Shown in pieces: positions 1,340 through 58,477 of a stretch of DNA of 64,000 bases; within the stretch, counting starts at the first letter, position 1; each line of letters starts with the position of its first letter. The stretch is from Limisphaerales bacterium (lineage in GTDB: Bacteria > Verrucomicrobiota > Verrucomicrobiia > Limisphaerales > UBA8199). The notes below the pieces were generated by a model that made no database searches, was not told the DNA's origin, and was given only the letters and a program-made list of their open reading frames with translations. The translations under genes and the position numbers were made by a program. The stretch is taken from positions 183,038 to 247,037 of the forward strand of contig JBGALR010000003.1 of the NCBI GenBank assembly GCA_044223735.1, read 5' to 3'.

Positions 1340-1346
1340 AATTTTT

Positions 1347-1787: not shown

Positions 1788-1793
1788 CGCACC

Positions 1794-2108: not shown

Positions 2109-2115
2109 GGCTGCC

Positions 2116-3290: not shown

Positions 3291-3294
3291 GACC

Positions 3295-23750: not shown

Positions 23751-23809
23751 GGAAATCGGTGGGTATGGTGATGGAGGTGCGCGGAGGCGTCAATTGTTCA
23801 GAGGAGATC

Positions 23810-24118: not shown

Positions 24119-24140
24119 TCGTTAATTTGTTCGGGAAATT

Positions 24141-24788: not shown

Positions 24789-24843
24789 GCTGGGGACAAT
24801 TTTGATGGATGAACTGGAGGTGCCGGGTTTTTGGACTGGATTC

Positions 24844-24920
24844 GGGCGGTCACGGAGACCGCCGAGGGATCACTTTTTTCTTGCGGCGCCCTCGGAGAGG
24901 CCGCCCTACCATCCTTCCAC
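24844..24920. repeat. Second repeat family, copy 1
   Basis: GGGCGGTCACGGAGACCGCCGAGGGATCACTTTTTTCTTGCGG...GAGAGGCCGCCCTACCATCCTTCCAC. Contains the hairpin GGCGGTC-ACGGA-GACCGCC. Confidence 0.75.
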
Positions 24921-25108
24921 TTGCTGGCTTTCCGTCAAAATTCTCGGCTCGATATACCTGGCGCGGTTATCAAACTTGATCCATGGTCCGGGGAAGAGGA
25001 ACCGGGAAGCCCGCCCTCTTCTTTGACGGTGCTCTTTCACCCTGCCTGCGAACCTTCCGAGCTGCGCGCTCTGAATGCGCTGGCGGGATCTTCCGATAAA
25101 GAATATTT

Positions 25109-25191
25109 GGGCGGTCACGGAGACCGCCGAGGTATCAATTTTTTCTTGCGGTCCCGCATGCGGGAGAGAGGCCGCCCTACCATCATTCCAC
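25109..25191. repeat. Second repeat family, copy 2
   Basis: GGGCGGTCACGGAGACCGCCGAGGTATCAATTTTTTCTTGCGG...GAGAGGCCGCCCTACCATCATTCCAC. Same orientation as copy 1, 265 bp downstream. Confidence 0.75.
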
Positions 25192-25252
25192 CTCCGAAAC
25201 TAAAAATTCTTCTCTGTGCCTCCGTGTCTCTGTGGTGAAAAATTCCGCTCTC

Positions 25253-25498
25253 TCATCCCCCCTGCACGGGCGGGAAAAGGGACACCTCCTCGCCTTCCTT
25301 CAGCACATAATCGGCGGTCTGGTAATCGACATCCACGGCCATGAGCATCGAGCGTCGCAGGGCGGCTAATTTGGGAAACTTAAGCATCACTTTTTCGACG
25401 AGGTCGCCGAGGGTGGCGCCGGCGGGGATGGTTTCCTGGTATCGGGCGCAGCCGGTCTGGTCTTTGAACCAGGAATAGAAGGTCACGGTCACGCGCAT
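25253..25498 (-). CDS. moaD: MoaD/ThiS-family sulfur-carrier protein
   Basis: 81 aa ending in '...VSLFPPVQGG', the C-terminal Gly-Gly. The length fits a beta-grasp protein. Confidence 0.8.
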   Translation of the reverse strand: MRVTVTFYSWFKDQTGCARYQETIPAGATLGDLVEKVMLKFPKLAALRRSMLMAVDVDYQTADYVLKEGEEVSLFPPVQGG

Positions 25499-25518
25499 GG
25501 CGGAGCAGAGCGGATGGC

Positions 25519-37950: not shown

Positions 37951-39162
37951 ATGATGTTTTATGATGTGGTGATCGTGGGCGGCGGCCCGGCCGGTTCGAC
38001 TCTGGGAGCGTTGCTCGGTAGGGCCGGTTTTTCGGTGGCGATCATTGAGCGTGAAACTTTTCCCCGGTATCATATCGGCGAGTCTTTGTTGCCGGAAGTG
38101 CTGGATGTATTGGAGGAGTCAGGCGCATTGCCGCTCGTGGAGAAGGCCGGGTTTCTCCGGAAGGAAGGCGGGGTTTTCCGGTGGGGCACAAATCCAGAGC
38201 CTTGGACCTTTCATTTCGACGAAGCAAAGGAGCGCTATCGATTTACATACGCCTATCAGGTCATTCGTTCCGAGTTCGATACCATTTTGCTGGATCATGC
38301 TCGCGCTTCGGGAGTGACGGTTTTTGAAAATCACGTGGCGCGTGATTTTTCTGAATGCCCCAATGGTGATGGCGAACCGTCGGGCGGAAAAGTGATGGCG
38401 ACGGCTCAGAATGGTGAATCCATCGAACTCACGGCGCGGATCGTTGCGGATTGTTCCGGCCAGGCGGGCTGGCTGGCGAACAAATTCAAGCTCCGGAAGT
38501 ATGATCCGTTTCTGAGAAATGTGGCCGTCTTTGCCTACTATCGCGACGCGTCGCGCCTGGTCGGGCGTGATGAGAACGCGATATTCTGCGAGGCGATGGA
38601 GTTGGGCTGGTTTTGGAATATCCCGCTCCACGATGGCACGAACAGCGTGGGGCTGATTACAAAAGCTGAACTGGCTCCGGCCAGTGACGACCGTGCCGCG
38701 TTCTACGAGGCGGCAATTCAGAAAAGTGTTTACACGAAAAAAATGCTCTCGTCTGCCCGCAGGGTGACGGACGTGCGTTGCATCGCCGATTATTCTTTTC
38801 GGCCCACGCGATTAACCGGCCCCGGTTATGTGTTGGTGGGTGACGCGGGCAATTTCATCGATCCCATCTGGTCCACGGGCATCATGCTCGCCACGACCGG
38901 CGCGCGCCTGGCGGCGCGGGCGATCAAGGAGTCATTTGAAAGCGGCTCCAGCGAGCCCCTGGCTCGATACGAAAAAGCCGCTCAAACAGTGGTGAGCCGT
39001 TATCGACATTTCATTTATTATTTCTACAAAACCAATGCCACGCCCGATAATTATTTCTGGGAAGCGTATTCGGTGGTGGGCACGGCGGCGGACCCGCGCG
39101 ACGCCTTCATCCGCCTGATCTCGGGCCGGCTGGGGTTGCAGGCCGAGACGGCGACGGCGTAA
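37951..39162 (+). CDS. Flavin-dependent halogenase (tryptophan-halogenase family)
   Basis: ATG at 37951. 'YDVVIVGGGPAGS' (GxGxxG), 'GWFWNIPL' (WxWxIP), 'FIDPIWSTGI', and a candidate catalytic Lys in 'GFLRKEGGVFRWG'. Confidence 0.7.
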   Translation: MMFYDVVIVGGGPAGSTLGALLGRAGFSVAIIERETFPRYHIGESLLPEVLDVLEESGALPLVEKAGFLRKEGGVFRWGTNPEPWTFHFDEAKERYRFTYAYQVIRSEFDTILLDHARASGVTVFENHVARDFSECPNGDGEPSGGKVMATAQNGESIELTARIVADCSGQAGWLANKFKLRKYDPFLRNVAVFAYYRDASRLVGRDENAIFCEAMELGWFWNIPLHDGTNSVGLITKAELAPASDDRAAFYEAAIQKSVYTKKMLSSARRVTDVRCIADYSFRPTRLTGPGYVLVGDAGNFIDPIWSTGIMLATTGARLAARAIKESFESGSSEPLARYEKAAQTVVSRYRHFIYYFYKTNATPDNYFWEAYSVVGTAADPRDAFIRLISGRLGLQAETATA

Positions 39163-39164: not shown

Positions 39165-39443
39165 TTAATTCGATTTCACCGCGTTCGCGCTGGTGAGGGC
39201 AGCCGCAATGCTGTCCACAGACAGGAAAACCTTTCGCGCGATTTCCGGGTCGGTGATTTTGAAGCCGAAAGTTTTGTCGAGGGCAACCACGAGTTGGAGG
39301 GCGTCGACCGAATCCAGCCCCAGGCCATCGGGACCAAACAGTGGCTTGTCGTCCTCAATTTCATCGGCAGTTACCTGAAGCATCAGGTTTTCGACGATCA
39401 GGCTTTTAAGCTGTTTCTTGAGCGCTGCGTTATTTTCCATCAA
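39165..39443 (-). CDS. Acyl carrier protein
   Basis: 92 aa. 'LGLDSVDALQLVVAL' is the phosphopantetheine Ser motif. Confidence 0.9.
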   Translation of the reverse strand: MMENNAALKKQLKSLIVENLMLQVTADEIEDDKPLFGPDGLGLDSVDALQLVVALDKTFGFKITDPEIARKVFLSVDSIAAALTSANAVKSN

Positions 39444-40171
39444 AAAATTCCACCATCTATTTTGAGGACCGAGCCTGTGATATATGCTGCGTCGTCACAA
39501 GCCAAAAACCGGATCGCCGCCGCCACTTCGCCGGGCTTGCCGAGGCGGCGCATGGGAATCCGTGCTTCCGCGGCTTTGCGTTCGTCCGCTGACCAGCGGG
39601 CCAGCGAAGCGGTGTCAATGTAGCCCGGGCAAATGGCGTTGACGGTAATGCCAATGCGCGCGACTTCCTTTGCCAGCGATTGAGTCATCGCCACCACTCC
39701 TGCTTTGGCCGCCGCGTAATTTGTCTGGCCGGCGGGCGCGAGCAGGGCGCTGAGTGAAGCAACATTGATGATGCGCCCATGACGCTGACTGATCATGGCC
39801 GGCAAGACCACCTGGCAACCATGGAAAACGCTGTTGAGATTCGTGGCGAGCGTTTCGTCCCAGACTGCGGGCGGCATGGCGCCGAGCAACATATCCTTGT
39901 GCGCGCCGGCGCTGTTGACGAGCACATCGATGCGCGTATCGGCGGCGATAATTGCGTTCACGGCCTCGGTCCATGCTGCGGGAGAAGTCACATCCAGCGT
40001 GATGCAACGGCATCGTTCTGAAAACTCCTGTGCCAACACTTCGGCCTGGTCGCGTCGCTGATTTAAACCGAGCCAGAGGTAATTCTCCGAACTTTCCGTG
40101 AGAAAAGCACGTGCGGCGGCGAGCCCAATGCCACCGTTTCCGCCGGTGATTAGGATAACGCGCTTGCTCAT
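39440..40171 (-). CDS. 3-oxoacyl-ACP reductase (SDR, FabG-like)
   Basis: 'ILITGGNGGIGLAAARAF', 'NSAG', 'NYAAAKAG' (YxxxK). Confidence 0.9.
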   Translation of the reverse strand: MSKRVILITGGNGGIGLAAARAFLTESSENYLWLGLNQRRDQAEVLAQEFSERCRCITLDVTSPAAWTEAVNAIIAADTRIDVLVNSAGAHKDMLLGAMPPAVWDETLATNLNSVFHGCQVVLPAMISQRHGRIINVASLSALLAPAGQTNYAAAKAGVVAMTQSLAKEVARIGITVNAICPGYIDTASLARWSADERKAAEARIPMRRLGKPGEVAAAIRFLACDDAAYITGSVLKIDGGIF

Positions 40172-41205
40172 GGCAGCTGGTTGGGAGCCTTGATGAAACG
40201 CGCGCCGATGGCTTGCTGATTGGTGCCCATCACGCTGAGGTTAGCTGCTGAAGACTGACCTGCCAAGATGGCATCCACAGCGGCGGCACATTGCCAGGCG
40301 GCGGCGGCGACCATCCCTTCACCGAGGACTCGCCGGACGCTCAATCTCGGCCCGCTCCAGTCAGGCCACGCGGATTGCTCGGCTTTGTCGGTTGTGAAAT
40401 TTCCGGCGCTACTGTCGCAAAGCAAATCGGTCACTGCGACCGATGGCAGTTCCCGGCGCACATTTTTCGCGGCGTCGCTGCGACTGACGCGGCTCGAATA
40501 AGTATGCGCGTTGGTGATCGCCTGCACCTCCACGCCACAGGATAATTCTGAATCCCGCACCAACGCCACCGCGCCCGCCCCGGCGCTCAGAACGGCCGAG
40601 CGTTCCAAATGCCACAGCGCATCGGCCAGCACCCAGTTGATTTCTTCGGCGCCGATGACAAGGGCAACATCTATTCGATTGTCCAACAACCACTCGGCGC
40701 CCATGGCAAGGCCTTGAAGAAAATTCGCTGAGTCGCCGATCAACGTGTTAAGCAGGGGTGTCTCCGGCAGGAGAGCCGCCACGCTGCTGCCCAGTGCGGC
40801 GAAAACGGTTTCCGGAAAGAGCAAGGGGCTGGCGGTCGCCGGGTCCTTCAAGACCTCTTCAAAAAAGCGGCACGAATAATGAACGCAACCGCCGTCCAGA
40901 CACATCACCACACCAATGCGGGGCGCAGGCTGTCCGCGCTCTTTGAGCGGCGCCATCGCTTCAAGCGCGGCTGCGGCGGCATAGTGTGTGATGGGGCTGG
41001 TTCGCCGCAACCGTGGATGCGCAAGAAATGCCGGGCGCGTGGCCGGCTCGGGCACTGGGCGACATTCGAGTGGTGCGGCACGACCGGGTCGATCCAGGGC
41101 GCGGGCGGGCAGAAGGTCTCCCGTTCGCAGCGCTTCGCGCAAGGCGGTCATTCCCCAGCCCGCTGGCGATACCGCCCCCACTCCTCCCACAAAAATACGG
41201 CTCAT
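40168..41205 (-). CDS. Ketosynthase-like chain-length-factor subunit (active-site Cys replaced)
   Basis: ATG at 41205, with an ATGA overlap with the KS stop. 'NTLIGDSANFLQGLAMGAEWL' aligns with the KS 'IISNACASGSDAIGHAWEWI', putting Ser in place of Cys. No HGTGT motif. Confidence 0.7.
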   Translation of the reverse strand: MSRIFVGGVGAVSPAGWGMTALREALRTGDLLPARALDRPGRAAPLECRPVPEPATRPAFLAHPRLRRTSPITHYAAAAALEAMAPLKERGQPAPRIGVVMCLDGGCVHYSCRFFEEVLKDPATASPLLFPETVFAALGSSVAALLPETPLLNTLIGDSANFLQGLAMGAEWLLDNRIDVALVIGAEEINWVLADALWHLERSAVLSAGAGAVALVRDSELSCGVEVQAITNAHTYSSRVSRSDAAKNVRRELPSVAVTDLLCDSSAGNFTTDKAEQSAWPDWSGPRLSVRRVLGEGMVAAAAWQCAAAVDAILAGQSSAANLSVMGTNQQAIGARFIKAPNQLP

Positions 41206-42440
41206 GTCCACCTCCGAAAAATGAGGGTGGCATTCACGCCGCCGAATCCAAACGAGTTGGAGAGAACCTGATTTACCCGCGCCGATTGCGGTTCGGTCAC
41301 GAGCGGAAAAGCGCAAGCGGTGTCCGGCTTTGCCAGCCCGATTTCCGGGGGCAGCCATTGCTCGCGCAACGCCATCAGGCAAACGGCCGCTTCAACGGCG
41401 CCGGCGGCACCGAGCAAATGGCCGATCGATGATTTGGAAGAACTGACCGGCAGCGTGGTCACGCGGTCACCCGCCCAGCGACCGATGGCGATGGCTTCCG
41501 CCGCGTCGTTGAGCGGCGTGCCGGTGCCATGCGCGTTGACATAGTCGATGTCGGCCGGTGTTGCGCGCGCCGCTTCGCAAGCGAGGGTCATGGAAGCCAG
41601 CGCGGCATTACCCTGGGGATGCGGTTGCGTCAGGTGATGGCGGTCCACCGACTGGCCATAGCCAACTACCTCGCCCAAAATCTCCGCGCCACGCCGTTGG
41701 GCGTGCTCGAGCGATTCGAGCGTGAATGCGGCAGCGCCTTCGCCTAACAACATTCCATCGCGCGAGGCGTCGAAAGGCCGGCAAGTGGTGGGAGAAAGCA
41801 ATTGCAACGAATCGAAGCCCGCGAACACGAGTTCTGTGTGGGCGTCGTATCCACCGGTCAACACCCGATCGGCCGACCCGCGCCGAATCCATTCCCAGGC
41901 GTGTCCAATGGCATCACTGCCTGAGGCGCAGGCGTTGGAGATGATTCGGATCGAGCCACCTGCGCCAAGCGCGTCCGCCACCATGCGCGCCTGTGTGTTC
42001 GCTTGATAGATCATCGCGCGTTTCGCCTGTTTACGATGGCGGTTGGGAGCGGTCAGCGCCTGACGAAAATAGCTCTCGCCTTCGGTCATGCCGCCAGCGG
42101 TAGTGCCGACAATAGTCGGAATGTCTTCACCTGCTGCCCAGCCGGATTGGTTCCAAGCTTCGTAAGCGGCCAGCAAAAACATTTTTCCCGCTCGATCCAG
42201 TCGTGCGGTGTGCCGTTCCCTCAATTTGGTTTTGGGAAGTGCAGGGGGCAGCGATACTTGCGCCGCAAGCTTCACGCGCTGACGACTGACATCAAATAAA
42301 GTGACCGGCGTGAAATTGCTTCGTCCCGCGCGAAACCCCTCCGCGCTTTGCTTCCATCCCGCGCCAAGACTGGTAATAACGCCTGCACCCGTCACGACGA
42401 CGCGTCGTGGCAGGGCAGAACGGGCGATGGGGAACAACAT
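41202..42440 (-). CDS. Beta-ketoacyl-ACP synthase (FabF-like KS)
   Basis: 'ISNACASGSDAIG' (Cys), 'NAHGTGTPLND' (His), 'SSIGHLLGAAG' (His), 'SNSFGFGGVNATLIF'. Confidence 0.92.
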   Translation of the reverse strand: MLFPIARSALPRRVVVTGAGVITSLGAGWKQSAEGFRAGRSNFTPVTLFDVSRQRVKLAAQVSLPPALPKTKLRERHTARLDRAGKMFLLAAYEAWNQSGWAAGEDIPTIVGTTAGGMTEGESYFRQALTAPNRHRKQAKRAMIYQANTQARMVADALGAGGSIRIISNACASGSDAIGHAWEWIRRGSADRVLTGGYDAHTELVFAGFDSLQLLSPTTCRPFDASRDGMLLGEGAAAFTLESLEHAQRRGAEILGEVVGYGQSVDRHHLTQPHPQGNAALASMTLACEAARATPADIDYVNAHGTGTPLNDAAEAIAIGRWAGDRVTTLPVSSSKSSIGHLLGAAGAVEAAVCLMALREQWLPPEIGLAKPDTACAFPLVTEPQSARVNQVLSNSFGFGGVNATLIFRRWT

Positions 42441-42529: not shown

Positions 42530-43555
42530 CTATCCGGTCATGGCCAGAGGAACTGGAGGAGTCACCATGTCAGTTTGTTGATAGTAATCCGCCAGGCTTT
42601 GGAGGGAGGGCACCAAGTCTGCCTCGGAAAGCGCATTGAGAACGCGTTCCTCGTTCATGATGAAGCGATCGCGTTTGTAGATCAGATAGTCCTGCTGCAA
42701 CGGTTGCGGCGTGAGATTCATCGTGACCAGGTTGGCTCCTGCACGAAGCCCGTTGACGTAGCCGTTGGCGGGTTGCGCCAGGTTCAGCGCGCTGACGGCG
42801 GGAATCACCCAGCCGGGCTTCATCAGGCGGAGGGCGGCCATGCAATTCAAAGTTTTTTCGGCTGACCCCGAAATCTCCCCGCCCAGCGGGGTTGGTTCGC
42901 CCGGGATGAAAGGACTCACGCTCACGCCTTGAAGCGGCAACTCGGCGGCGAGCCGGCAATTCTCCTGCAACTGTTCATCAGTTTGTTCCGGCAGGCCGGC
43001 AATGAAACCGGAACTGACATTCCAGCCGGTATCGGCCAGATGACGAATATGCTGCAAGCGTTCGTCAAGATTTCCCGGCGCTTCGTAACGATCGTACGCG
43101 GTGGGATCGGCGGTTTCGAATTTTAAAATGTAAACCGAGGCGCCGGCTGCCTTCAGTTCCGCGTACAGCTCGCGGTCATGCGTGCCCAGACAAACGCTGA
43201 GCCCGAGCGGGGTTTCGCGCCGTAAAGTGCGGAGCAGGGGGATGACAATTTCGCGAACGGCCAAAGGATCTTCGCCGGTCTGGATGTTGACATCAGTCAC
43301 CGAGGCGGGACGATGGTGGATGAGCAATTCGGCGATGTCTTCGCGCAGAGCCCGCGAGCGTTGAAGCTCGCGATTATCGCGGCGCATGCCGCAGTAATGG
43401 CAGTTTTCCCGGCAAAAATTGGAAACCTCAACGACTGCCCGCACGAAAACTCGATTACCAAATATTTCGCGCGCGGTTGCTGCGGCGCGCTCGTGCAAAA
43501 GCTCTTTTTCGGTGCCCCACGCTGAAAGTTGCGCGGTGGTTGGAATGTTCCACAT
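42530..43555 (-). CDS. Radical SAM enzyme, HydE/PylB/BioB-like subfamily
   Basis: 'VVEVSNFCRENCHYCGMRRDN' (CxxxCxxC in the HydE/PylB-type context). Length fits a TIM barrel. 'GFIAGLPEQT'. Confidence 0.8.
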   Translation of the reverse strand: MWNIPTTAQLSAWGTEKELLHERAAATAREIFGNRVFVRAVVEVSNFCRENCHYCGMRRDNRELQRSRALREDIAELLIHHRPASVTDVNIQTGEDPLAVREIVIPLLRTLRRETPLGLSVCLGTHDRELYAELKAAGASVYILKFETADPTAYDRYEAPGNLDERLQHIRHLADTGWNVSSGFIAGLPEQTDEQLQENCRLAAELPLQGVSVSPFIPGEPTPLGGEISGSAEKTLNCMAALRLMKPGWVIPAVSALNLAQPANGYVNGLRAGANLVTMNLTPQPLQQDYLIYKRDRFIMNEERVLNALSEADLVPSLQSLADYYQQTDMVTPPVPLAMTG

Positions 43556-43606
43556 CTACATTTAAGATAGAAAAGGAATGGTGTATTGGCAAACGCAATT
43601 CCCCGG

Positions 43607-44401
43607 ATGCAAATCCCAAACCGAAGTGGATTTGTTTCGTCTTTGTCTAAAATTCGGTATCTTTTTCGCGTGGACTGGAATCATTCAGTTGTGGCTGTCA
43701 TTCCGTGCTTTAACGAAGCGCGAGGCATCCGAGCTTTGGTCGAACAGGTACGTAAACATGTCGCAACCGTAATCGTCGTCGACGACGGTTCAAACGATTC
43801 CACGTCGAAAGAGGCCGTCGCCGGCGGTGCGAAAGTGCTACGCCACGGACAGAATCTTGGCAAAGGCATGGCGCTGAAAACTGGCCTTTCGGCGGCTGAT
43901 GACGCCGGGTTTCGCCACGCAATGCTGCTCGACGGCGATGGGCAGCATGCGGCGCAAAGTATCCCGGCCATGTTCGCGTGCCTGGAATCAACGGGCGCGA
44001 TCTTGGTAGTGGGCAATCGCATGCAAAACGCGGCGCGAATGTCATGGTTGCGGCGGCGCGTGAATTCGTGGATGAGCCGGGAAATCTCCCGCCTCGCCAG
44101 GAGAACGATGCCTGACACGCAATGTGGTTTTCGTCTCGTCAATCTCGAGGTGTGGCGGAGTTTGAATTTGCGCACGGCTCGCTTTGAGGTGGAGTCCGAA
44201 ATGATTGTTCGCTTCGCGGAACGTGGTCATCGCATCGAATTCGTGCCCATCCAAACGGTGCCTGGGGTCCGGCCAAGTTACATAAGCCCGGTGAGTGATA
44301 CGTGGCGATGGTTTCGTTGGCGGTGGGCGGTGCGTTCGCTTGCATCGGAGCGGGATGTGCATTCTCCACCGAAACAAAATCCGTCGGCGGTCCGGCGATG
44401 A
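43607..44401 (+). CDS. Glycosyltransferase family 2 (polyprenyl-phosphate glycosyltransferase-like)
   Basis: 'VAVIPCFNEARGI', 'VIVVDDGSNDST', 'LLDGDGQH'. ATG at 43607; the ORF also opens at TTG 43586. Confidence 0.8.
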   Translation: MQIPNRSGFVSSLSKIRYLFRVDWNHSVVAVIPCFNEARGIRALVEQVRKHVATVIVVDDGSNDSTSKEAVAGGAKVLRHGQNLGKGMALKTGLSAADDAGFRHAMLLDGDGQHAAQSIPAMFACLESTGAILVVGNRMQNAARMSWLRRRVNSWMSREISRLARRTMPDTQCGFRLVNLEVWRSLNLRTARFEVESEMIVRFAERGHRIEFVPIQTVPGVRPSYISPVSDTWRWFRWRWAVRSLASERDVHSPPKQNPSAVRR

Positions 44402-44784
44402 GCACGCCACCCGAAAACCTGCCTTCGAGCCGGAAAAGCTGGCTGGCCATTATCGCCAAAAAAGCGATATCGTTGGTGGTGGCTGGTATCATCCTGGGTT
44501 GGGCGTATCAATGGGTGTCAGCGCGGTTTTATCGGGACGATCAAACGGCGGGCTTTTGGTATGGCACGCTGCACGGGGCTTGCATGCCTGCGGCATTGCC
44601 GAGTTTGTTGATGGGAAAAGACGTTCCGATTTTTGCGCCGCGCAATTCCGGACGTGGTTACAAACTTGGCTATATCGCAGGCATCAATTTGTGCGGCCTG
44701 GTATTTTTTGGCCTCGCGTTTCGATCGGCACGTAGTGAGCGCGCGGCAGAATCTAAAACCACCAATGGCGATACACCTCAATGA
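44398..44784 (+). CDS. Hypothetical small membrane protein
   Basis: ATGA overlap with the GT2 stop. Hydrophobic segments 'ISLVVAGIILGWAY' and 'IAGINLCGLVFFGLAF'. Confidence 0.45.
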   Translation: MSTPPENLPSSRKSWLAIIAKKAISLVVAGIILGWAYQWVSARFYRDDQTAGFWYGTLHGACMPAALPSLLMGKDVPIFAPRNSGRGYKLGYIAGINLCGLVFFGLAFRSARSERAAESKTTNGDTPQ

Positions 44785-45484
44785 TATCCACCGGCCCGCC
44801 TGCCCAGTAATGATTCGGAGGAAAATGAAAAGTCCGGCTGGTGCGGTTGTAGGTCAATTCGCCCGGTCGCTCCGGAATATTTGGATCGTATACTTGAAAC
44901 CGAATTTCCCGATGATCCTCCCTGCGCTGATAAAGGGTGATGCCGTGGTTAATCGTGAGTTCCGGAAATTTCACGACGTGCAAGATGGGATCGGTGCGTT
45001 CCGGCGCCGCGAGGGTGAGGCGCTGCGCGATGCGCGCCTGATGCGCGCGCGAAATGGGAAACACCATCCGCCAATGGCTGCGCAAGACATACGATTGCCA
45101 GGCCCCCCCACAATTGGCCTTGAGCAATCCAGCCTGCGATTCACTAAAGGCCCGCAAGTTCGGATAGCCAGGGATGATAATTCGCTTCGCGGATGTGCTC
45201 GGGTGGCGAGGATTGCGGGCGACCACACGACGGATGAGACTTTGATACTCGCTGGCAGTGGCAGTCGGCAATTGCGGCGCGAAACGCGCGTGATAGAAAA
45301 ACTGTCGCGCCGACCGGACCATGACGAAGCAGCGATGCGCATATTCGGGCGGTGGCTCAGTGCGAAAGGTGTGCATGCTGTCCGTGGCTTCGTCGCGCCG
45401 ATATTGCCAGACCAGTTCGTTGGCGAACGCGAACGTATCGCTCGCAAATTGAAAGCGAACGAATGGTTCGGTGGGCGGCGTCAT
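44753..45484 (-). CDS. Orphan protein with transglutaminase/papain-like Cys-His-Asp pattern
   Basis: ATG at 45484. 'YAHRCFVMVRSARQFF' (Cys), 'LTINHGITLY' (His) and 'FQVYDPN' (Asp) occur in the order and spacing expected of a transglutaminase-like core. Confidence 0.4.
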   Translation of the reverse strand: MTPPTEPFVRFQFASDTFAFANELVWQYRRDEATDSMHTFRTEPPPEYAHRCFVMVRSARQFFYHARFAPQLPTATASEYQSLIRRVVARNPRHPSTSAKRIIIPGYPNLRAFSESQAGLLKANCGGAWQSYVLRSHWRMVFPISRAHQARIAQRLTLAAPERTDPILHVVKFPELTINHGITLYQRREDHREIRFQVYDPNIPERPGELTYNRTSRTFHFPPNHYWAGGPVDIIEVYRHWWF

Positions 45485-45523
45485 GCTTGCGGCAAAATCT
45501 AACGATCCATTGCGAAGGTGCAA

Positions 45524-46795
45524 ATGCTTTACGAAATGTGGCTGGAGGTTGCGCGGGAACGCGGTCGCGAAATCGCCCTATGGGAATGTGGTTCGGGGCG
45601 ACGCTGGCGCTTCAGCGAATTGCGGGACCGAGCCGAATGCGAAGCCGTTGAGCCTGGATCATGGGTTTTTCCTCAGGGGCATTCTTCCGACTTTCTGCTG
45701 GCGACCTTGCGCGCGTGGCGGGCGGGCGCCGTCGTTTGTCCTTTGGAACGGGAACAGTCGCGGCCCGTGTTTCCGCACCCCCCTCAGGCCTGCTGTCATT
45801 TGAAGACGACCTCCGCGACTTCGGGACGCGCGCGCGCTATTGCGTTCACGGCGGAGCAATTGACGGCTGACGTGCGGAATATCGTCGCGACAATGGGCTT
45901 GCGCGCGGAATGGCCCAATCTCGGAGCGATATCGCTCGCGCATTCCTACGGTTTTTCCAATCTGGTATTGCCATTATTTTTGCACGGCATTCCTTTGATC
46001 CTTGCGCAATCGCCCTTGCCGGAAATGGTGAAGGCAGCGGCAGCAGGTCACGAAAATATGACCCTGGCGGGCGTGCCGGCGCTGTGGCGCGGATGGAGTG
46101 AGGCCGGGGCGATTCCCGATTCAGTTCGGCTGGCGATTTCGGCAGGTGCTCCATTGAGACTCGAATTGGAACAATCCATATATGACCAACGTGGATTGAA
46201 AATTCACAATTTCTACGGTTCCTCGGAATGTGGCGGGATTGCTTTCGATCCCTCGCCCATTCCCCGCAACGATGAAGCTTGCGTGGGACAAGCGATGCGC
46301 GATGTGAATTTAAGCGTGGCGGAAAGCGGCTGTCTGGAAGTGCGCGGCGACGCAGTTGGCGAATGCTACTGGCCGGAGTCAGAGCCCGCACTGGGAGACG
46401 GTAGATTTTGCACCAGCGATCTGGCGGAGATCAAAAATGGCGAGGTGAGTTTGCGCGGGCGCGTGGGAGATCAAATCAATGTCGCCGGGCGCAAAGTTGC
46501 GCCGGAAACGATCGAAGCAACATTGAGATTGCACGCCGGGGTGAAGGATTGTTTGGTATTTGGCATTCCCGAAGCCACCGGGGAAAGAAGTGAATGCATC
46601 GTGGCCTCTGTGGTTACGATGCGGCCGATTGATGAAAAGCAGTTGAAGCTGTTCCTGCAGGAACATTTGCCGGCGTGGCAGGTGCCGCGGGAGTGGTGGT
46701 TGGTTCCTTCGCTCTCCGCCAATGCTCGAGGAAAAATTTCGCGGACCGATTGGGCGCGTCGCTATTTGGAAATTCGCAGGCAGCGGAGCGCGTGA
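45524..46795 (+). CDS. AMP-dependent synthetase/ligase (short ANL adenylating enzyme; candidate starter-unit:ACP ligase)
   Basis: ATG at 45524 after GAAGG (alternative GTG at 45518). 'TTSATSGRARAI', 'YGSSECGGIA', 'TSDLAEIKNGEVSLRGRVGDQINVAGRKV'. Confidence 0.8.
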   Translation: MLYEMWLEVARERGREIALWECGSGRRWRFSELRDRAECEAVEPGSWVFPQGHSSDFLLATLRAWRAGAVVCPLEREQSRPVFPHPPQACCHLKTTSATSGRARAIAFTAEQLTADVRNIVATMGLRAEWPNLGAISLAHSYGFSNLVLPLFLHGIPLILAQSPLPEMVKAAAAGHENMTLAGVPALWRGWSEAGAIPDSVRLAISAGAPLRLELEQSIYDQRGLKIHNFYGSSECGGIAFDPSPIPRNDEACVGQAMRDVNLSVAESGCLEVRGDAVGECYWPESEPALGDGRFCTSDLAEIKNGEVSLRGRVGDQINVAGRKVAPETIEATLRLHAGVKDCLVFGIPEATGERSECIVASVVTMRPIDEKQLKLFLQEHLPAWQVPREWWLVPSLSANARGKISRTDWARRYLEIRRQRSA

Positions 46796-46816: not shown

Positions 46817-47251
46817 TCACGGCACATCGCCGCTGAGGGCCAGGCTCGCTTCCAAAATCAAGCGTTCACCAATCATGCTCTTCGCTTCGGCTTGAATCAG
46901 TCCGCCTAACCGCCCGGTGATTGAAGCCTGGGTGATAATGCGCTCGTTGGGCCTGGCCGCACCCAAGATTTTCACATGGCGCAAGGCGGTAAGCCTCAGA
47001 TTTTTTAGCGGCGGAATTTGTGGATCCGATTGCGCCACCACGCCCGCAACTTGCGCTGCCGCTTCGACTAGCAAAACGCCCGGAAATATCGGCTTGCCCG
47101 GGAAGTGGCCGTCCAAAAACGGTTCGTCGCCGCGCACGCGATATTCGCCGGCGCCCTCCTTGCCCGGTACCAGGCTGACCATCCGATCCACAAAACGAAA
47201 CTCGGGGCCATGCGGCAATTGACTCAGTGCTTGTTCCAGGTAATCGCTCAT
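46817..47251 (-). CDS. FabA/FabZ-like 3-hydroxyacyl-ACP dehydratase
   Basis: 'LPHGPEFRFVDRMV' and 'LDGHFPGKPIFPGVLLVEAAAQVAG'. Confidence 0.88.
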   Translation of the reverse strand: MSDYLEQALSQLPHGPEFRFVDRMVSLVPGKEGAGEYRVRGDEPFLDGHFPGKPIFPGVLLVEAAAQVAGVVAQSDPQIPPLKNLRLTALRHVKILGAARPNERIITQASITGRLGGLIQAEAKSMIGERLILEASLALSGDVP

Positions 47252-47256: not shown

Positions 47257-47934
47257 TCAGTTCTTCATCGGTTCGGCGACTTTGTAATCGGTGGGGATGT
47301 TCGCCTCGAAAGTGCCCGCCGGCAGTGGGGCGTTGGTGACTGAATTGGAAAAGTCGTTTCGCATGGATGAGCCGTCACTGAATTTCAATTCGGTTGACGC
47401 AGGCGTAAAATCGGCCGCGCGGAAGCCCACCACAATCGCGGTCATGAATTTTTGCGCGAAGGTGCTCTTGGGTTGGAGCGATAGTTGCACCACGCCGTTG
47501 GTTTCGATCACGGTGCCGATTTTAAATTGGGATTCAAGCTGGCTCCGGCTGCGGGGAAAACTCGCTTCGAGCAATGCCAATGCATCGCGCCACGGCCCCG
47601 GCTGGCTGACATTCAAAGGATATTTCTCCGCTCGCTTCAATCGTGGATAGAGCAGAACCAGTTGATCTGGCTGTCGAATGGCAATCGTTTGTGGCGGTCT
47701 GCCCAGCTCCCACCGAAAATGATCGGGTATCGCCACGAAAACGCGACCAGTCGAAACCAGTGGTTGCGAAAAACTTTTGATGACTCGAGTCTGCACGGCG
47801 TCCGCCGACCACGTGTGCATATTCGTTTGCGCGGCGAACCATGCGCTTAGAAGCGGGCTCTCAGCCAGGAGATTTTTTTGTCCGGCGAGTAAGAGTGCCA
47901 CCGCGATGGCGAACTGGAGATACGTGCTTTTCAT
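47257..47934 (-). CDS. LolA-like lipoprotein/lipid carrier
   Basis: Signal peptide 'FAIAVALLLAGQKNLLA'. 'GRVFVAIPDHFRWELGRPPQTIAIRQPDQLVLLYPRLKRAE' is LolA-like. ATGA overlap with the upstream gene. Confidence 0.65.
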   Translation of the reverse strand: MKSTYLQFAIAVALLLAGQKNLLAESPLLSAWFAAQTNMHTWSADAVQTRVIKSFSQPLVSTGRVFVAIPDHFRWELGRPPQTIAIRQPDQLVLLYPRLKRAEKYPLNVSQPGPWRDALALLEASFPRSRSQLESQFKIGTVIETNGVVQLSLQPKSTFAQKFMTAIVVGFRAADFTPASTELKFSDGSSMRNDFSNSVTNAPLPAGTFEANIPTDYKVAEPMKN

Positions 47935-50900
47935 GGATTATGTTTCGGCTGATTGCCCTCGTCGGGCCATACCGGGACAAAGTGAAACCATTGATCCAGA
48001 TGTTGCCGTATCTCCGGCTCAAAGGCGGTCATAATTTTTTGCGTGAGTTCGCGACGCGCATCGCGATTTCCCAGCGCCCGCCGGTCATATTCGATTTCCG
48101 TCATCAAATTGGCCGTATATTGGTTTTGCCCGCGCGTGATTGAAGCGCAAAATATCCCACAGCCCGAGGCTCTCGCCAATTCCGCCGCGGCAATGGCAGC
48201 CGGAAACGGCCGGCCAAACAGCTCCACGGTGACCGCCGTCGCCGGCACGGGGCGATCAATGAGGAGCGCGATGACGGCGCCTTCCTGGAGTCGCTGGATG
48301 ACTTCGACAAAAGCAAATGCATCCTGGCCGATCGTCAGGGTTTCGATGCCCCAACGCGCGCGTGAGGCGCTGCGAAGCTCTGTGAAACCCGCCCCGGGCT
48401 CAGCCTGCGTTATCGCGAGCAGGGAGATGCCGCGGCTCTTCATCAACTGGCCTCCGATCTCCCAGTTGCCAAGGTGCGGCGTCACGAGCAACGCGCCTCG
48501 TCCGCTATGATGGCAGGCCTGCAACCGTTGAAAGTTTTCCTCATGCATTACTTCGACTGGCGCTGGAATGCCGTTTTCGTAGTTCCACAGGTCGAGCAGC
48601 TTCAGCGCGAACTGACGGTATAGACGTCCCGCCATTTTAATGGCGGCGGTACGATTGTTATTTAACGCGGGCAGGAGATTTTGAATTACGATTTCGCGAC
48701 GGTCGCGGTTTAAGAGTTGATAAATTTCTGCCAGCGCCAGGGAAATGCCTCGAAGCATGAACGGCGGCATGACGCGAGTGACCGCCAACGCCAGCCGCCA
48801 GATGCCGGGACGATAAAGAGATGAGGTCGCAACTTGGGAGGGAGCGTCGTCTCGGGCGTGGAGTGCGAGCCACCATGAGGGCAGGAGAAAAATGGAAATA
48901 ATTACATTCGCGGCGATGCCGATGGCGCAGACTTTTCCCAGGCTCGCCATGCCCAAATTGCCGGAGAATGCGAGCGAGCCGAAACCGGTGATCGCCGTGC
49001 CCCCGCAAAGCAGCAGCGCTCGCCCAATGGAGCGCCGCACCGCTCGGGCATCGCCGCGCAGGCGGCGAAGGCCAAGCTGAATGAAAATCCCGTAGTCCAC
49101 GCCCGTGCCCAGAATCAAGGGCACGCCCATGAGGTTCAGCAAATTCCATGACCACCCGGCAATTCCCATGACCGCCATCAGGCAAACGCCACTGAGTAAC
49201 AACGCACCAAAACTGAGGGCCACTTCCTTGACGCTGCGAAAAGCCAGCCACAATGAAAGCAGCACGAGCGCGAGCATCGCGATAACCATCACGCCCAATC
49301 GCGGCTTCACCCGTTCCAACGTTGCTGCGCCCAGCAGCGGCCAGCCCGAAACGGAAATTCCCGCGAGCTCAAACTTTTCCGACAGGGCCGAAAGTGCTGC
49401 AGTCGACGTTCGGTTGGTCGCGGGATAGACAAGGCCAAGGGCGAACCATTCGTTGGAGGAGTGTGCGGCGAATCGTTGCAGAAGCCACTGGCTCATTTGA
49501 TTCGTCGGCCAGATTGTCTCGACACTTGCGCCATATCGGGTCCAGTCGCGAAGCAATTCGCCAGTGAGGTCCATCGCGTTGGTGTTGAAGCCCTGTTGCG
49601 CCGCCGCTTTATTGAGCCGCGGTCCTTGTCGGCCGAGGGATAGGGCCGTCGCACGATTCTGTTGCTGCCACTCTGGTTGCGGCCAGAGCGTTGAAGGCAA
49701 AGTGAAGTTGGCGATCCAGCCGTTGGAGCGTCCGGCCGCGAGCATCGCCTCGGCTTCTGCGAGTTTGCGGTGCACGGCCAGTTCTGTGGCGCCACTGGCG
49801 ATCACCCATAACGGATCCTGAGGTATGCCTACTGATGCGGTGATTTCGTTCAGCGCAGTTTCTGCTTCCGTATGTTGAATCCGCAATGCATCGCCGGTGT
49901 TGTCCAGGCCCGGTTGCCTGACGATTAATACGGCGGCGGCAATCAGGATGATTGCGGTCGTTAGCCCAAGAGCGGGGCGAACGTTGGTGGTCGGCGATTG
50001 GGTGGCCGGTTCCGTCGCCTCCGTGATCGGCGGAAAAAGAAATGTCCACCATTTTGGCCGTGCATCAGAAGTCCTGGCGATAAGTCGTTCAGGAAATAGC
50101 GGCGGCAAAAAAGCAACGACCATGACAATCGCTGCGAGTGCGACGCCAATCGCGACGAGAGAACCCAGCTGCGCGAGCCCGGGCAGTCCGCCAAAATTTA
50201 AAACCGAAAATGCCGCGATCGTCGTAATGGCCGCCCACAAAATACTCGGGGCAATCGCACGGCGAATTTCCGGCACGGAAAGCTGAGGGTGCGCGAGCGC
50301 TTCTTGATAGTGAACGACCGCGTAGTCCACCGCGAGGCCGAGCAGCACGGCCGCGAAGCCGAGACTGATGACATTGATCGTGCCCAATATCAAACTTCCC
50401 AGCCCCATCGTGGCCACCAGGATTAAAGCCAGCAAAGCCAGCAGCCACATCATCGGACGCCAGCGACGATGCGTGAGCCAGAAGAGCATGGCGATGATGG
50501 CCGCCGTGCCGATCACCGAGCCAGTCATGTCGCGCCGCATGCTTGTGGCGATTTCCGCGACGAAGGCGGGCCGACCGGTGGCATGCACCACGACGCCCTG
50601 CCAGTCCGGCTTATGGGCGCGGAAATGTTCCACGGCGCTCTTGATCGCCGACAGCCAATCCGCGCAGTCGCGCCACGTTTTCAAGTCATGGCCAGCCTGT
50701 ATAAAAATTACGCGAAACGTTCCGTCGGCAGAAGCGAACATGCGGTCGCCTTGCTCCGGCGACATGCCACTCAGTGCCGCCGTCGCCGGCACGTTCAAGA
50801 AGTCGTAGGGATCAAACGCGCGCCGCGCGATTTCCATTGGGGAGAGCGAAGTAGCGAGCGTCTCCTTCGCTTCCGCGAGGGTGGCGTCGATGTGTTCCGG

Positions 50901-51281
50901 CGCCAGGCGATTGGTGAGGGAAGCGAAAACGTCAGGCGGCTGGTTGAACCATAAGTAGGCGACCATTTCCGCGGCCTGCTCGGGATGTTCCATCCAGGGT
51001 GCCTGCCAGGAAACGCTGGCAACCAGGTTCGTTTCGCTTCGGAGGTATGCCGCCAATTCTCCGGCGAGCCGTTCCGAGCTATCGCGTTTGGGGAAGCGTA
51101 GCGTCAGGATGAGTTCGCGCGCGTTGGAAAAATGTTCCTGATAAAGCTTCAGGCCGCGCACACCGGGTTCGTCGGCGGGCAGAAGATTCAACACATCCAC
51201 ATCCAGTCGCAATCGCACGAGGCCGATCACCGCCGGTATCGCGAGCAAGATCCACCACCATTGCTTCAGCGCGCGCATCAC
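47931..51281 (-). CDS. Fusion: MMPL/RND-type exporter (N-terminal ~800 aa) + LpxL/LPLAT-family acyltransferase (C-terminal ~300 aa)
   Basis: Two RND half-repeats with 'GLAVDYAVVHY' and 'GTGVDYGIFIQ'. The C-terminal 'LLVTPHLGNWEIGG' (H-x4-E, encoded at 48459-48476) is typical of lipid A-type acyltransferases. GTG at 51281 or ATG at 51278. Confidence 0.8.
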   Translation of the reverse strand: MMRALKQWWWILLAIPAVIGLVRLRLDVDVLNLLPADEPGVRGLKLYQEHFSNARELILTLRFPKRDSSERLAGELAAYLRSETNLVASVSWQAPWMEHPEQAAEMVAYLWFNQPPDVFASLTNRLAPEHIDATLAEAKETLATSLSPMEIARRAFDPYDFLNVPATAALSGMSPEQGDRMFASADGTFRVIFIQAGHDLKTWRDCADWLSAIKSAVEHFRAHKPDWQGVVVHATGRPAFVAEIATSMRRDMTGSVIGTAAIIAMLFWLTHRRWRPMMWLLALLALILVATMGLGSLILGTINVISLGFAAVLLGLAVDYAVVHYQEALAHPQLSVPEIRRAIAPSILWAAITTIAAFSVLNFGGLPGLAQLGSLVAIGVALAAIVMVVAFLPPLFPERLIARTSDARPKWWTFLFPPITEATEPATQSPTTNVRPALGLTTAIILIAAAVLIVRQPGLDNTGDALRIQHTEAETALNEITASVGIPQDPLWVIASGATELAVHRKLAEAEAMLAAGRSNGWIANFTLPSTLWPQPEWQQQNRATALSLGRQGPRLNKAAAQQGFNTNAMDLTGELLRDWTRYGASVETIWPTNQMSQWLLQRFAAHSSNEWFALGLVYPATNRTSTAALSALSEKFELAGISVSGWPLLGAATLERVKPRLGVMVIAMLALVLLSLWLAFRSVKEVALSFGALLLSGVCLMAVMGIAGWSWNLLNLMGVPLILGTGVDYGIFIQLGLRRLRGDARAVRRSIGRALLLCGGTAITGFGSLAFSGNLGMASLGKVCAIGIAANVIISIFLLPSWWLALHARDDAPSQVATSSLYRPGIWRLALAVTRVMPPFMLRGISLALAEIYQLLNRDRREIVIQNLLPALNNNRTAAIKMAGRLYRQFALKLLDLWNYENGIPAPVEVMHEENFQRLQACHHSGRGALLVTPHLGNWEIGGQLMKSRGISLLAITQAEPGAGFTELRSASRARWGIETLTIGQDAFAFVEVIQRLQEGAVIALLIDRPVPATAVTVELFGRPFPAAIAAAELARASGCGIFCASITRGQNQYTANLMTEIEYDRRALGNRDARRELTQKIMTAFEPEIRQHLDQWFHFVPVWPDEGNQPKHNP

Positions 51282-51802
51282 GGAGTCAGAAATCCTTCGA
51301 TAAACTCACCCGATTTCAGGTTCTCCAAACGCCAGCCGCCGTCATCCTGGCGGGTGAATTTAAAATTCTTCGGCAGCGACTGGCCGGCAAGAGCGGCTCT
51401 CAAGTAAAGCCAGGCGAACCGATTCGGCGCTTCCCCTTTGCCACTAAACACATAATGGCGCGCCGGAAATTCAATGAGCCAGTTCGTCGAGGTCGCTTGT
51501 CCTGCGGTGATGGGCAGCGGAGTTTTTGAAAAGTCGAAAACGAAACTGCCGTCAGGCCGCGTCGCGACCAACAAATCGCCGCTCAACTCGGGCCGTTTGT
51601 GGCTTGGCCGCCATACCGCCTGACCTTGCTGAATCTGCCAATCTGCGCCGGAGGGTCGCCGTCGTTCAATTTTTGTCGTGTTGCATCCGTTCCCCAACAG
51701 TAGCGCGCCCGCCAGCAGCGACCTCAGAAGGCCTTGCCGGAAAAAATTGCGGGCTAAAACAAATGGCGACACGCGGCCACTATACAGAACTCCGCGAGAC
51801 AT
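51278..51802 (-). CDS. Lipoprotein of unknown function (occupies the DUF3261-like position of aryl-polyene clusters)
   Basis: Lipobox 'LLLGNGC'. The stop overlaps the exporter start. Confidence 0.5.
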   Translation of the reverse strand: MSRGVLYSGRVSPFVLARNFFRQGLLRSLLAGALLLGNGCNTTKIERRRPSGADWQIQQGQAVWRPSHKRPELSGDLLVATRPDGSFVFDFSKTPLPITAGQATSTNWLIEFPARHYVFSGKGEAPNRFAWLYLRAALAGQSLPKNFKFTRQDDGGWRLENLKSGEFIEGFLTP

Positions 51803-56941: not shown

Positions 56942-58477
56942 CTATTTATCGGCGAGATGCCGGGACTGGCGTTTCGGCAATCGCGGGGTTTTCCCGCGCA
57001 CTTCTTCGGCGGAATCGCTCGCGGGCAGGAAATCTTTCAAAAAGGCGGGTTTGTCGTGGCGGCCACCATTGCGGTAGTCGGCCCAGAGCGCTGCCGCAAC
57101 TTGCCGCACGTCCAGCTTCGCCTCTTCGGTGAGAAACCGGAATACCAGTTCCATCAAGCGAATCAGCGCGATGCCGTCGGTGCGGCCCACGCGCTGGTGC
57201 AGCCATTCACTCCAGCGCATGAACGCGACGAAGGCTGACGGCTGATTCATCCAGAGAAGCGGGGTGGTGGCGACGAAATTGCCGCTGTTGCCCACGAGAT
57301 CCCAATAGCGCGCGAATCGCCGCAGCTTTTGCATCGTGGCGAAATCGATCAGTTTGTTCTGCAAAATTTCGTAGGGCGGTTGCGGATTGTAGATCATCTG
57401 CCATTCGGCATCGTGGCGAATGATGGGCGTGCCGCGCAGGCGTTTCAGTATACCCACCTGAATTTCCTGCGGCCCGAGCGCAAGGAGCCGGTCGAAGCCA
57501 GCGCCGAAACTTTCGAGCGACTCGCCGGGCAGGCCGACAATGAGGTCGGCGTGAATATGCACGCCGGTGTCGCGCCGCAGGAAGTGAAAATTTTCCGCCA
57601 GACGCTGCAAGTTCTGGCGGCGATGAATCAGCGCGGCGGTTTGCTCGTTAAAGGTCTGAACACCAACTTCGAATTGGAGGGTTCCGGCTGGAAACCGCGC
57701 AATTACTTCGCGCAAACCTTCCGGCAACCGGTCCGGCACCATTTCGAAATGGAAGAAATGGCCGGGACGATAGTGTTCGAGGAAGAATTCGAGAATGGCG
57801 CGGCTGACGGGGAGGTTCAGATTGAAAGTACGGTCAACGAACTTGAATTGTTTTACCCCGCGATCAATCAATCTTTTCAACTGCTCCATCAAGGCGGGCA
57901 GGGCAGCCTGACGCACCGGAATATCGAGTGACGACAGGCAAAACTCGCACGAAAACGGGCAGCCGCGGGAGGCTTCGATGTAAATGATGCGATGTGCCAC
58001 GTCCTGCTCGTCGTAGAGATCATAGGGCAGGACGAGCTGCGAAAAGTCGGGAAGACCGGCGGGAATGATTTTATCCCTGGGTGGAGTGCCGGAAAGTATC
58101 CGCCGGCAAACCTCGGCGAATTTCAGGTCCGCTTCGCCCGTGATGACGTAATCGGCCAGTTGGACAATGAGCTGGTGCCCGACCTCGTAGCTCACTTCCG
58201 GACCGCCGAGCACGATGGTGATGTCCGGTCGCAATCGTTTGATCGCGGCCACCACTTCGTTCGTGGGCGAAACGTTCCAGATATAAATGCCGAGCCCGAT
58301 GATCTTTGGGTTTCGCGCGAGCAAAACTTCCGCGATGTCCACCGGGCGTTGATTGATATCGAACTCGAGGATGGCAGCCGCGGGACGTAGCGAGCCGAGA
58401 TTGGCGAGCAGATAACGCAAGCCAAACGCGGCATGGATGTATTTCGCGTTGAGCGTGCTAAGGACGATATCGGCCAT
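56942..58477 (-). CDS. B12-binding-domain radical SAM protein (DUF4080-type C-terminus)
   Basis: An N-terminal B12-like domain, then 'EASRGCPFSCEFCLSS' (CxxxCxxC), in a 511-aa protein. Confidence 0.8.
   Translation of the reverse strand: MADIVLSTLNAKYIHAAFGLRYLLANLGSLRPAAAILEFDINQRPVDIAEVLLARNPKIIGLGIYIWNVSPTNEVVAAIKRLRPDITIVLGGPEVSYEVGHQLIVQLADYVITGEADLKFAEVCRRILSGTPPRDKIIPAGLPDFSQLVLPYDLYDEQDVAHRIIYIEASRGCPFSCEFCLSSLDIPVRQAALPALMEQLKRLIDRGVKQFKFVDRTFNLNLPVSRAILEFFLEHYRPGHFFHFEMVPDRLPEGLREVIARFPAGTLQFEVGVQTFNEQTAALIHRRQNLQRLAENFHFLRRDTGVHIHADLIVGLPGESLESFGAGFDRLLALGPQEIQVGILKRLRGTPIIRHDAEWQMIYNPQPPYEILQNKLIDFATMQKLRRFARYWDLVGNSGNFVATTPLLWMNQPSAFVAFMRWSEWLHQRVGRTDGIALIRLMELVFRFLTEEAKLDVRQVAAALWADYRNGGRHDKPAFLKDFLPASDSAEEVRGKTPRLPKRQSRHLADK

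Follow-up and report, generated by a model that had tools for sequence, protein, structure and literature searches.

Within the window, the whole 64,000-nucleotide stretch of Limisphaerales bacterium DNA that we have analyzed, the open reading frame (ORF) at 42530-43555 (minus strand, ATG start, 341 amino acids) codes for a radical S-adenosylmethionine (SAM) protein, here called rSAM. Downstream of it lie the genes of a ketosynthase (KS), a degenerate KS partner of the chain-length-factor type (CLF), a ketoreductase (KR) and an acyl carrier protein (ACP). The protein is a non-hydrogenase paralogue of HydE, accessory to a gene cluster of Limisphaerales/Pedosphaerales that resembles those for aryl polyenes (Ape), and the novelty lies in the presence, inside an Ape-like lipid cluster, of a member of an uncharacterised class of HydE paralogues.

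The HydE-like protein and its family

The sole domain that Pfam recognizes in the translation is Radical_SAM (72 bits, E 8.5e-20). The three cysteines of the CxxxCxxC motif (C48, C52 and C55) belong to the peptide VEVSNFCRENCHYCGMRRDN (residues 42-61) and were invariant in the alignments of the Verrucomicrobiota family, of HydE and of the outgroups. The stop codon is separated by 89 nt from the start of the KS gene (42440) on the same strand, a gap in which no terminator-like hairpin was found, and the gene is probably co-transcribed with KS-CLF-KR-ACP. On the other side a glycosyltransferase family 2 (GT2) gene is divergent, at 30 bp if it starts at a TTG (43586) or 51 bp if it starts at the first ATG (43607). 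The promoter match just upstream of the rSAM start is not significant by itself, since one site was found against 0.6 expected from shuffled sequences. The initial annotation had described this arrangement (an ORF with CxxxCxxC located 89 nt upstream of KS and divergent from GT2), which the ORF and Pfam analyses confirmed, and had seen no hydrogenase, pyrrolysine or biotin genes nearby. Pfam scans of about 50 further ORFs of the window indeed detected none of HydA/HydF/HydG, Pyl or Bio, and hyd, bio and pyl genes were also missing from the annotated neighbourhoods of the related loci examined.

Among the NCBIfam models the protein ranked HydE over PylB, BioB, HydG and ThiH. It remained below the curated equivalog cut-off of HydE (TIGR03956, 194.5 bits vs 254.6) and below those of PylB (TIGR03910, 123.9 vs 348.2) and BioB (TIGR00433, 72.9 vs 225), and it falls outside every curated family. 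With the HydE model, members of its own family scored 162-195 bits, the nearest outgroups 245-273 and proteins scoring as true HydE 350-380. The solved structures most similar in sequence were Thermotoga maritima HydE (E 5e-47), PylB (2e-23) and BioB (1.6e-06). An AlphaFold (AF2) model built on a 41-sequence alignment (pLDDT 92.7, pTM 0.90) is a full, closed (beta-alpha)8 barrel of the HydE/BioB type, which Foldseek matched to HydE (5few/3cix) with a template modeling (TM) score of 0.85 and then to PylB, BioB, HydG, ThiH and MqnE/NosL. Because model ranking, structure matches and fold superposition agree, the assignment to the HydE/PylB/BioB branch is right, and the placement in the HydE/PylB/BioB/ThiH branch given in the initial annotation holds.

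The protein belongs to a tight family of Verrucomicrobiota (Pedosphaera/Limisphaerales) from soil and freshwater. The best 120 cluster representatives were 63-78% identical to it, and those with names are Pedosphaera, Limisphaerales or Verrucomicrobiota metagenome-assembled genomes (MAGs). A library clustered at 50% identity contained two full-length representatives with more than 50% identity, the next ones having 40% at most. By a scan with a family-specific pattern the family is found in at least 357 GTDB species genomes. The JGI pipelines label these homologues "biotin synthase".

Active site and the wider class of HydE paralogues

The closest known protein both in sequence (ca. 30-35% identity) and in fold is the HydE of T. 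maritima (3iiz, 5fep, 7o1o), with which rSAM shares the full barrel, the CxxxCxxC placed after strand 1, the SAM motif QxGEDP and residues E43, K145, E147 and R166, all conserved within the family, whose alignment (19 members, 51-78% identity) contains 94 invariant columns. Residues were mapped by a HMMER alignment to the T. maritima enzyme, and the scaffold of the latter (C63/67/70, E58, E161, R180 and QSGEDP) is kept. In contrast, Met224 is replaced by Gly210 and Met291 by Thr278, Arg155 corresponds to Val141 and the C-terminal auxiliary-cluster cysteines are absent. Both methionines are the thioether residues discussed for the handling of the iron fragment in HydE (PMC10114646). An auxiliary cluster is unlikely, since beyond CxxxCxxC the only cysteine conserved in the family is C122. 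Also unlike HydE, the gene has no hydA, hydF or hydG nearby and is located in a lipid/polyketide cluster.

When 17 members of the family were set against 16 proteins carrying the name HydE at NCBI, the changes specific to the family were almost all located on barrel strands (D88, N90, S120, S181, N199, G210, S212, S214, V254, S255 and T278). Most of these residues are polar or small, suggesting a fit to a new small and polar substrate. The enzyme, conserved and presumably active, keeps the machinery for SAM cleavage, with a substrate cavity that has been rebuilt and made polar. An invariant basic motif (K294-R295-x-R297...R304) follows the last barrel strand in the family alignment.

We have read the residues at query positions 212/214/254/255/278/297 in 244 HydE-like sequences, a signature that defines an uncurated class established here. 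Two discrete patterns were found. The first, G-G-T-T-M-K/R, is carried by ~151 sequences including the true-HydE scorers and one HypC::rSAM::BATS fusion, and the second, S-S-V-S-T-R, by ~83 including the Verrucomicrobiota family. The query has S212, S214, V254, S255, T278 and R297 in a HydE-like barrel and no hyd genes nearby, and P0133, P0273, P0293, P0352 and P0382 carry the same six residues. S-S-V-S-T-R marks a discrete and widespread class of non-hydrogenase HydE paralogues with its own active-site signature. Some members have "HydE" or "biotin synthase" names in public records. Two of them (P0297 and P0371, one from the cyanobacterium Pleurocapsa) appear in NCBI as "[FeFe] hydrogenase maturase HydE", probably by over-annotation.

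The HydE-like fusions to AMP-binding domains (two) and to methyltransferases (four) all have the S-S-V-S-T-R pattern. Those with AMP-binding domains are P0186 from Roseibium sp. AS2 (WP_342891539.1; L171, 10001-12316) and P0195 from an Omnitrophota MAG. At the Roseibium locus a B12-binding radical SAM (B12-rSAM) gene lies upstream and there is a hydrolase, the HydE-like::AMP-binding fusion being followed by a fusion of carrier and 2-oxoglutarate-dependent oxygenase and by a hydroxylase. No hyd genes are found there, nor in Clostridium beijerinckii, where the HydE-like gene is accompanied by an AMP-binding enzyme, an ACP, a SPASM-type radical SAM, two B12-rSAM and an ABC exporter. The same absence was noted in an archaeal-type contig (AMP-binding enzyme, two acyltransferases of the 2-oxoacid-dehydrogenase type and a B12-rSAM) and in cyanobacteria and Methylococcales (UbiE-like methyltransferase and HemN-like radical SAM). 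Furthermore, an operon of B12-rSAM, shikimate dehydrogenase, HydE-like protein with S-S-V-S-T-R and shikimate kinase, again lacking hyd genes, has the same neighbours on 24 contigs (L172, 5006-8518).

The lipid cluster and its variants

The rSAM-anchored set comprised 81 loci, 39 of them flanked by 6 kb or more on each side. In these 39 the most constant neighbour was the small membrane protein (31), followed by KS within 10 kb (30) and GT2 (26). Any cluster gene was found near rSAM in 34, and in the remaining five rSAM stood alone in an unrelated context. The initial annotation would have to be abandoned if the closest homologues were bona fide BioB, ThiH or HydE out of synteny with KS/CLF genes, and the proximity of KS in 30/39 speaks for the opposite situation. 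In a neighbour-joining tree (crude, being distance-based and with some ORFs over-extended) the loci without KS were interspersed among the KS-linked ones, suggesting fragmentation of the cluster and not a second paralogue; a separate paralogue for the KS-less loci was rejected on these grounds. One or two B12-rSAM genes separate the HydE-like gene from KS in 13 of the 80 genome loci, and the variant with two is found in L002/L006 (10001-16349) and also in L004, L011, L015, L053, L057, L073, L075 and L081. L002 has, in addition, a KS of 779 amino acids with a faint PP-binding match and a second MMPL protein fused to a methyltransferase. In ~15 loci (L005, L027, L030, L035, L051 and L052 among them) a class-I SAM methyltransferase of ~243 amino acids is located on the same strand just upstream of the HydE-like gene, echoing the rSAM::methyltransferase fusions found elsewhere in the class.

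A second set was anchored on CLF and came from metagenome contigs, 26 loci having at least 6 kb upstream; its proportions are rough since the 80 loci retained were the top matches in a small number of sample types and lie mostly on JGI-labelled contigs. Upstream of KS there were both HydE-like and B12-rSAM genes in 5/26, the HydE-like gene alone as in the window in 1/26, only B12-rSAM in 8/26 and neither in 12/26. With the HydE-like gene in just six of these 26 loci, the KS/CLF cluster is more widespread than the gene, which is an accessory in a variable slot between the GT2/small membrane protein pair and KS. The statement that rSAM heads the KS-CLF-KR-ACP operon is therefore correct for the window and not universal, the slot being occupied elsewhere by B12-rSAM or by nothing. 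The features of the window cluster are collected in Table 1.

Table 1 Features of the rSAM locus and of the surrounding cluster (window positions)
Feature	Position	Strand	Basis
HydE-like radical SAM enzyme, S-S-V-S-T-R class, 341 aa	42530..43555	-	ORF, Pfam, NCBIfam, PDB, AF2, Foldseek
Cluster-binding peptide VEVSNFCRENCHYCGMRRDN of the rSAM protein	43373..43432	-	Translation
Weak sigma-70-like -35/-10 match (consensus only), just upstream of the rSAM start	43564..43592	-	9/12 positions
FabF-like ketosynthase (KS), 89 nt downstream of rSAM	41202..42440	-	Pfam ketoacyl-synt N and C domains
Degenerate KS partner, CLF-like, 346 aa, no active-site Cys motif	40168..41208	-	Weak FabF N-terminal similarity
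FabG-like ketoreductase of the short-chain dehydrogenase/reductase type	39440..40171	-	Pfam, NCBIfam
Acyl carrier protein	39165..39443	-	PP-binding domain, ACP models
FAD-dependent halogenase-like enzyme, convergent to KS-CLF-KR-ACP	37951..39162	+	Pfam Trp_halogenase, 142 bits
GT2 glycosyltransferase, ApeJ-like, similar to polyprenyl-phosphate-sugar synthases, divergent from rSAM	43586..44401	+	Pfam, NCBIfam
Small membrane protein, 128 aa, no Pfam match	44398..44784	+	Gene call
DUF8321/DUF8322 protein	44753..45484	-	Precomputed Pfam annotation; no match in local Pfam copy
Short AMP-binding acyl-ACP/CoA ligase, ApeH role	45518..46795	+	Pfam, NCBIfam, annotation
FabZ/ApeI-like dehydratase (DH)	46817..47251	-	Pfam FabA; PDB FabZ
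LolA-like protein, ApeL role	47257..47934	-	Annotation
MMPL/RND transporter fused to lipid A-type acyltransferase, ApeM and ApeD roles	47931..51281	-	Annotation, Pfam
174-aa protein, no Pfam match, in the position of ApeN upstream of the transporter	51278..51802	-	Conserved in related loci (8/81)

The KS stayed below the cut-off of the fabF model (361 bits vs 493.75), and its CLF-like companion is a conserved partner of KS in the related loci. The halogenase-like protein, also below cut-off with the CmlS model (246 bits), contains the WxWxIP-type motif GWFWNIP and a segment PRYHIGESL with a His at the place where, we assume, the catalytic Lys of flavin halogenases would be expected. Neither an aryl-starter gene (TAL, UbiC or XanB2-like) nor an enoyl reductase was seen among the ORFs of the cluster.

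Compared with the ape clusters of E. coli and Xenorhabdus (PMC8253772), the window has counterparts of ApeC, D, E/F, H, I, J, L, M, O and Q, the fit of ApeG and ApeN being uncertain. There is a candidate for each role of the biosynthetic set (KS plus inactive partner, KR, DH, ACP and ApeH-type ligase), but with only one KS and one DH and with a KS that is more FabF-like than ApeO-like. The attachment and export set of the same study is fully represented (GT2 for ApeJ, acyltransferase for ApeD, LolA-like for ApeL and RND/MMPL for ApeM). In contrast, ApeP, ApeR, ApeK and ApeB had no match and there are the halogenase-like and DUF8321/8322 genes instead. The comparison with aryl polyenes made in the initial annotation fits the export and attachment genes, which are Ape-like, better than the KS, for which FabF (287 bits) is a closer PDB match than ApeO (6qsp, 165 bits), and an aryl-polyene product is at most putative. 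The product is predicted to be an outer-membrane lipid. The E. coli ape inventory (ApeA-R) includes no radical SAM gene (PMC8253772), in agreement with the earlier remark that this step has no counterpart in the described aryl-polyene pathway, and its ApeH takes 4-hydroxybenzoic acid from UbiC (PMC8253772). We found no description of the rSAM-KS gene arrangement in the literature on aryl polyenes with radical SAM or HydE-like enzymes.

Clusters of the "ladderane" type are common in Verrucomicrobia according to antiSMASH surveys (PMC7298704) and may be the same loci as the one described here. The putative ladderane cluster I of anammox bacteria (kuste3603-3608) is similar in having an ACP, FabZ, FabF with an inactive FabF partner and one or more radical SAM genes in a host of the PVC superphylum. 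However, PMC13459092 describes a B12-dependent radical SAM enzyme for the anammox cluster, and the one in the window is HydE-like. The window cluster, from a verrucomicrobium and not an anammox bacterium, has neither a phytoene-desaturase-like nor a B12-rSAM gene, the B12-rSAM pair occurring in related loci only. A special kinship with the putative anammox ladderane proteins was rejected, since the similarity of KS and DH to ordinary FabF and FabZ is at least as high.

Elsewhere in the window there is a second radical SAM gene (56942-58477, minus strand, 511 amino acids, B12-binding, Radical_SAM and DUF4080 domains) that adjoins kdsB and pyrG. Its identity to the B12-rSAM genes of the related lipid clusters is only ~23%, and it is unrelated to the HydE-like gene. 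In positions 1-6455 the ORFs follow one another on one strand, most of them having no family match, and the AT skew is strongly positive. This region, which includes a ClpP-like (prohead-protease-like) protein (2116-3024) and ends near a tRNA-Ala (6380-6455, minus strand), may be a remnant of a prophage or integrated element. Finally, the stretch 23800-25500 has ~1.6 kb after a tRNA-Val without a convincing ORF, no Rfam matches and high GC skew over 24-28 kb, and is followed by HPRT and a dimeric-dUTPase-like gene (minus strand).

Proposed role and alternatives

Radical SAM enzymes with a full barrel (BioB, HydE, PylB, ThiH, NosL) act on free small molecules. We propose, with a probability of roughly 40%, that rSAM makes or remodels a small acid, possibly an aromatic one, which is then loaded onto the ACP by the ApeH-like ligase. 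On top of the observed fold, family placement, gene order, distribution and loss of HydE residues, we infer the following mechanism. SAM would be reductively cleaved on the cluster bound by C48/C52/C55, giving a 5'-deoxyadenosyl radical that would attack a small, polar and free substrate inside the remodelled barrel. This substrate could be an acid derived from an amino acid or from shikimate/chorismate, possibly aromatic, or a precursor of it. The product would be a carboxylic acid, adenylated by the neighbouring ligase, loaded on ACP and used as starter for extension by KS/CLF, and in the clusters without the rSAM gene the starter would be unmodified or come from another source. The role is suggested by the closed full barrel, by the links of the class as a whole with adenylation and carrier proteins, fusions included, by the aromatic hints and by the cluster having no gene that would supply a starter. 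The hints of an aromatic substrate are the shikimate operon (24 contigs), the UbiE-like methyltransferases fused to or next to the paralogues, the halogenase-like gene and the missing aryl-starter gene.

There are two pathways with a similar logic. PylB (3t7v), the second-best model and structure for rSAM, is the methylornithine synthase, a mutase of an amino-acid carbon skeleton, followed in its pathway by an ATP-dependent enzyme that ligates the product; unlike in that pathway, none of pylC, pylD, pylS and pylT is found in the window. In nosiheptide biosynthesis the radical SAM tryptophan lyase NosL makes an aryl acid that is then loaded through an AMP-ligase onto a carrier protein (NosL/NosI/NosJ), the same succession proposed here of full-barrel radical SAM enzyme, aryl acid, adenylation and carrier protein. 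However, NosL is a distant relative (TM ~0.63-0.68, 17-18% identity) of the ThiH/HydG sub-branch and the window has no thiopeptide genes.

Several observations weigh against the starter-acid proposal. The HydE-like gene is missing from 20/26 CLF-anchored sister clusters, indicating that it is not the sole source of the starter, and the clusters without it retain the ligase where the flank suffices. This absence speaks more than anything else against a starter role that is essential, and it fits a role in a variant starter or in tailoring. In addition, the changes D88, N90, S120, N199 and G210 of the family are not found in the rest of the S-S-V-S-T-R class, so that the substrate of the family may differ. 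The fused AMP-binding domains are only ~26% identical to the ligases of the cluster, so that the evidence of the fusions concerns the wider class and not the Verrucomicrobiota family, and the neighbourhoods of class members are heterogeneous. Finally, in several loci (L037, L041, L043 and L078 among them) GT2 and the small membrane protein remain next to rSAM with no KS within 10 kb, an arrangement that would also suit an enzyme acting together with these two on the sugar or the polyprenyl-phosphate-sugar of a glycolipid. The rates of company around rSAM, similar for the small membrane protein, GT2 and KS, are consistent with such a modification of the head group or anchor, as is the presence of paralogues among glycosylation genes (AglB/STT3 in L084, several glycosyltransferases in L089). 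We nevertheless consider it quite improbable. GT2 is part of the core of the KS cluster even where rSAM is absent, so that the adjacency may only reflect the position of the slot; the cluster showed no genes for the biosynthesis of sugar nucleotides, and rSAM is transcribed towards KS and not with GT2.

The initial annotation had left the role as one on the starter unit or on the growing chain. The first part received indirect backing, at the level of sequence, from the fusions and neighbourhoods of the paralogues with adenylating enzymes and carrier proteins, although sequence alone does not separate starter synthesis from chain tailoring. As a tailoring enzyme rSAM would act on the growing or finished acyl or polyene chain bound to ACP, by radical cyclisation, C-C bond formation, skeletal rearrangement or addition of 5'-deoxyadenosyl to a C=C bond, with analogies in Jaw5, in the proposed ladderane radical SAM enzymes and in adenosylation of the HpnH/MqnE type. 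Tailoring enzymes typically come and go among clusters that are otherwise alike, as rSAM does, and the slot upstream of KS is shared with B12-rSAM in the 13/80 genome loci and also in five of the six CLF-anchored loci with the HydE-like gene. Moreover, HydE chemistry is a radical addition and not a hydrogen abstraction (PMC10114646), radical SAM precedents in lipid pathways have been reviewed (PMC13459092), and the basic motif after the last strand could dock the acidic ACP. Against these points, the predicted closed barrel resembles that of enzymes acting on free small molecules, the family-specific residues lining it are polar and not lipophilic, and the paralogues are fused to adenylating or methyltransferase domains and not to KS, DH or ACP. 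On balance chain tailoring looks somewhat unlikely. Much more so, to the point of being nearly negligible, is a housekeeping HydE, BioB or PylB placed beside KS by chance. The "biotin synthase" label of the JGI homologues and the position of HydE as best model and best structural match would favour it, but the three curated models score far below their cut-offs, Met224 and Met291 are replaced, hyd, bio and pyl genes are lacking and the synteny with the lipid cluster extends across many species. Bona fide HydE, BioB and PylB were rejected on these curated cut-offs, active-site residues and gene context.

Returning to the starter-acid role, a broader version of it, which we regard as unlikely, is that the S-S-V-S-T-R paralogues are an unrecognised class of radical SAM enzymes making unusual, possibly aromatic, acids for adenylation and carrier loading. 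In Limisphaerales the rSAM enzyme would open a way, independent of oxygen and of UbiC/TAL, to the starter of an outer-membrane lipid similar to aryl polyenes, or else adenosylate or cyclise the chain and so give rise to a new class of lipids. Names such as "biotin synthase" or even "HydE" are routinely given to HydE-like proteins that have no part in hydrogenase maturation. The Verrucomicrobia family offers a natural experiment, in that some lipid clusters have the rSAM gene and others, nearly identical, lack it. Members of the Verrucomicrobia abound in soil and peat, and no product is known for the Ape-like or "ladderane-like" clusters that they carry. If the reaction were identified, a new class of radical SAM enzymes would have a function, and a major uncharacterised lipid of the cell envelope would be easier to define.

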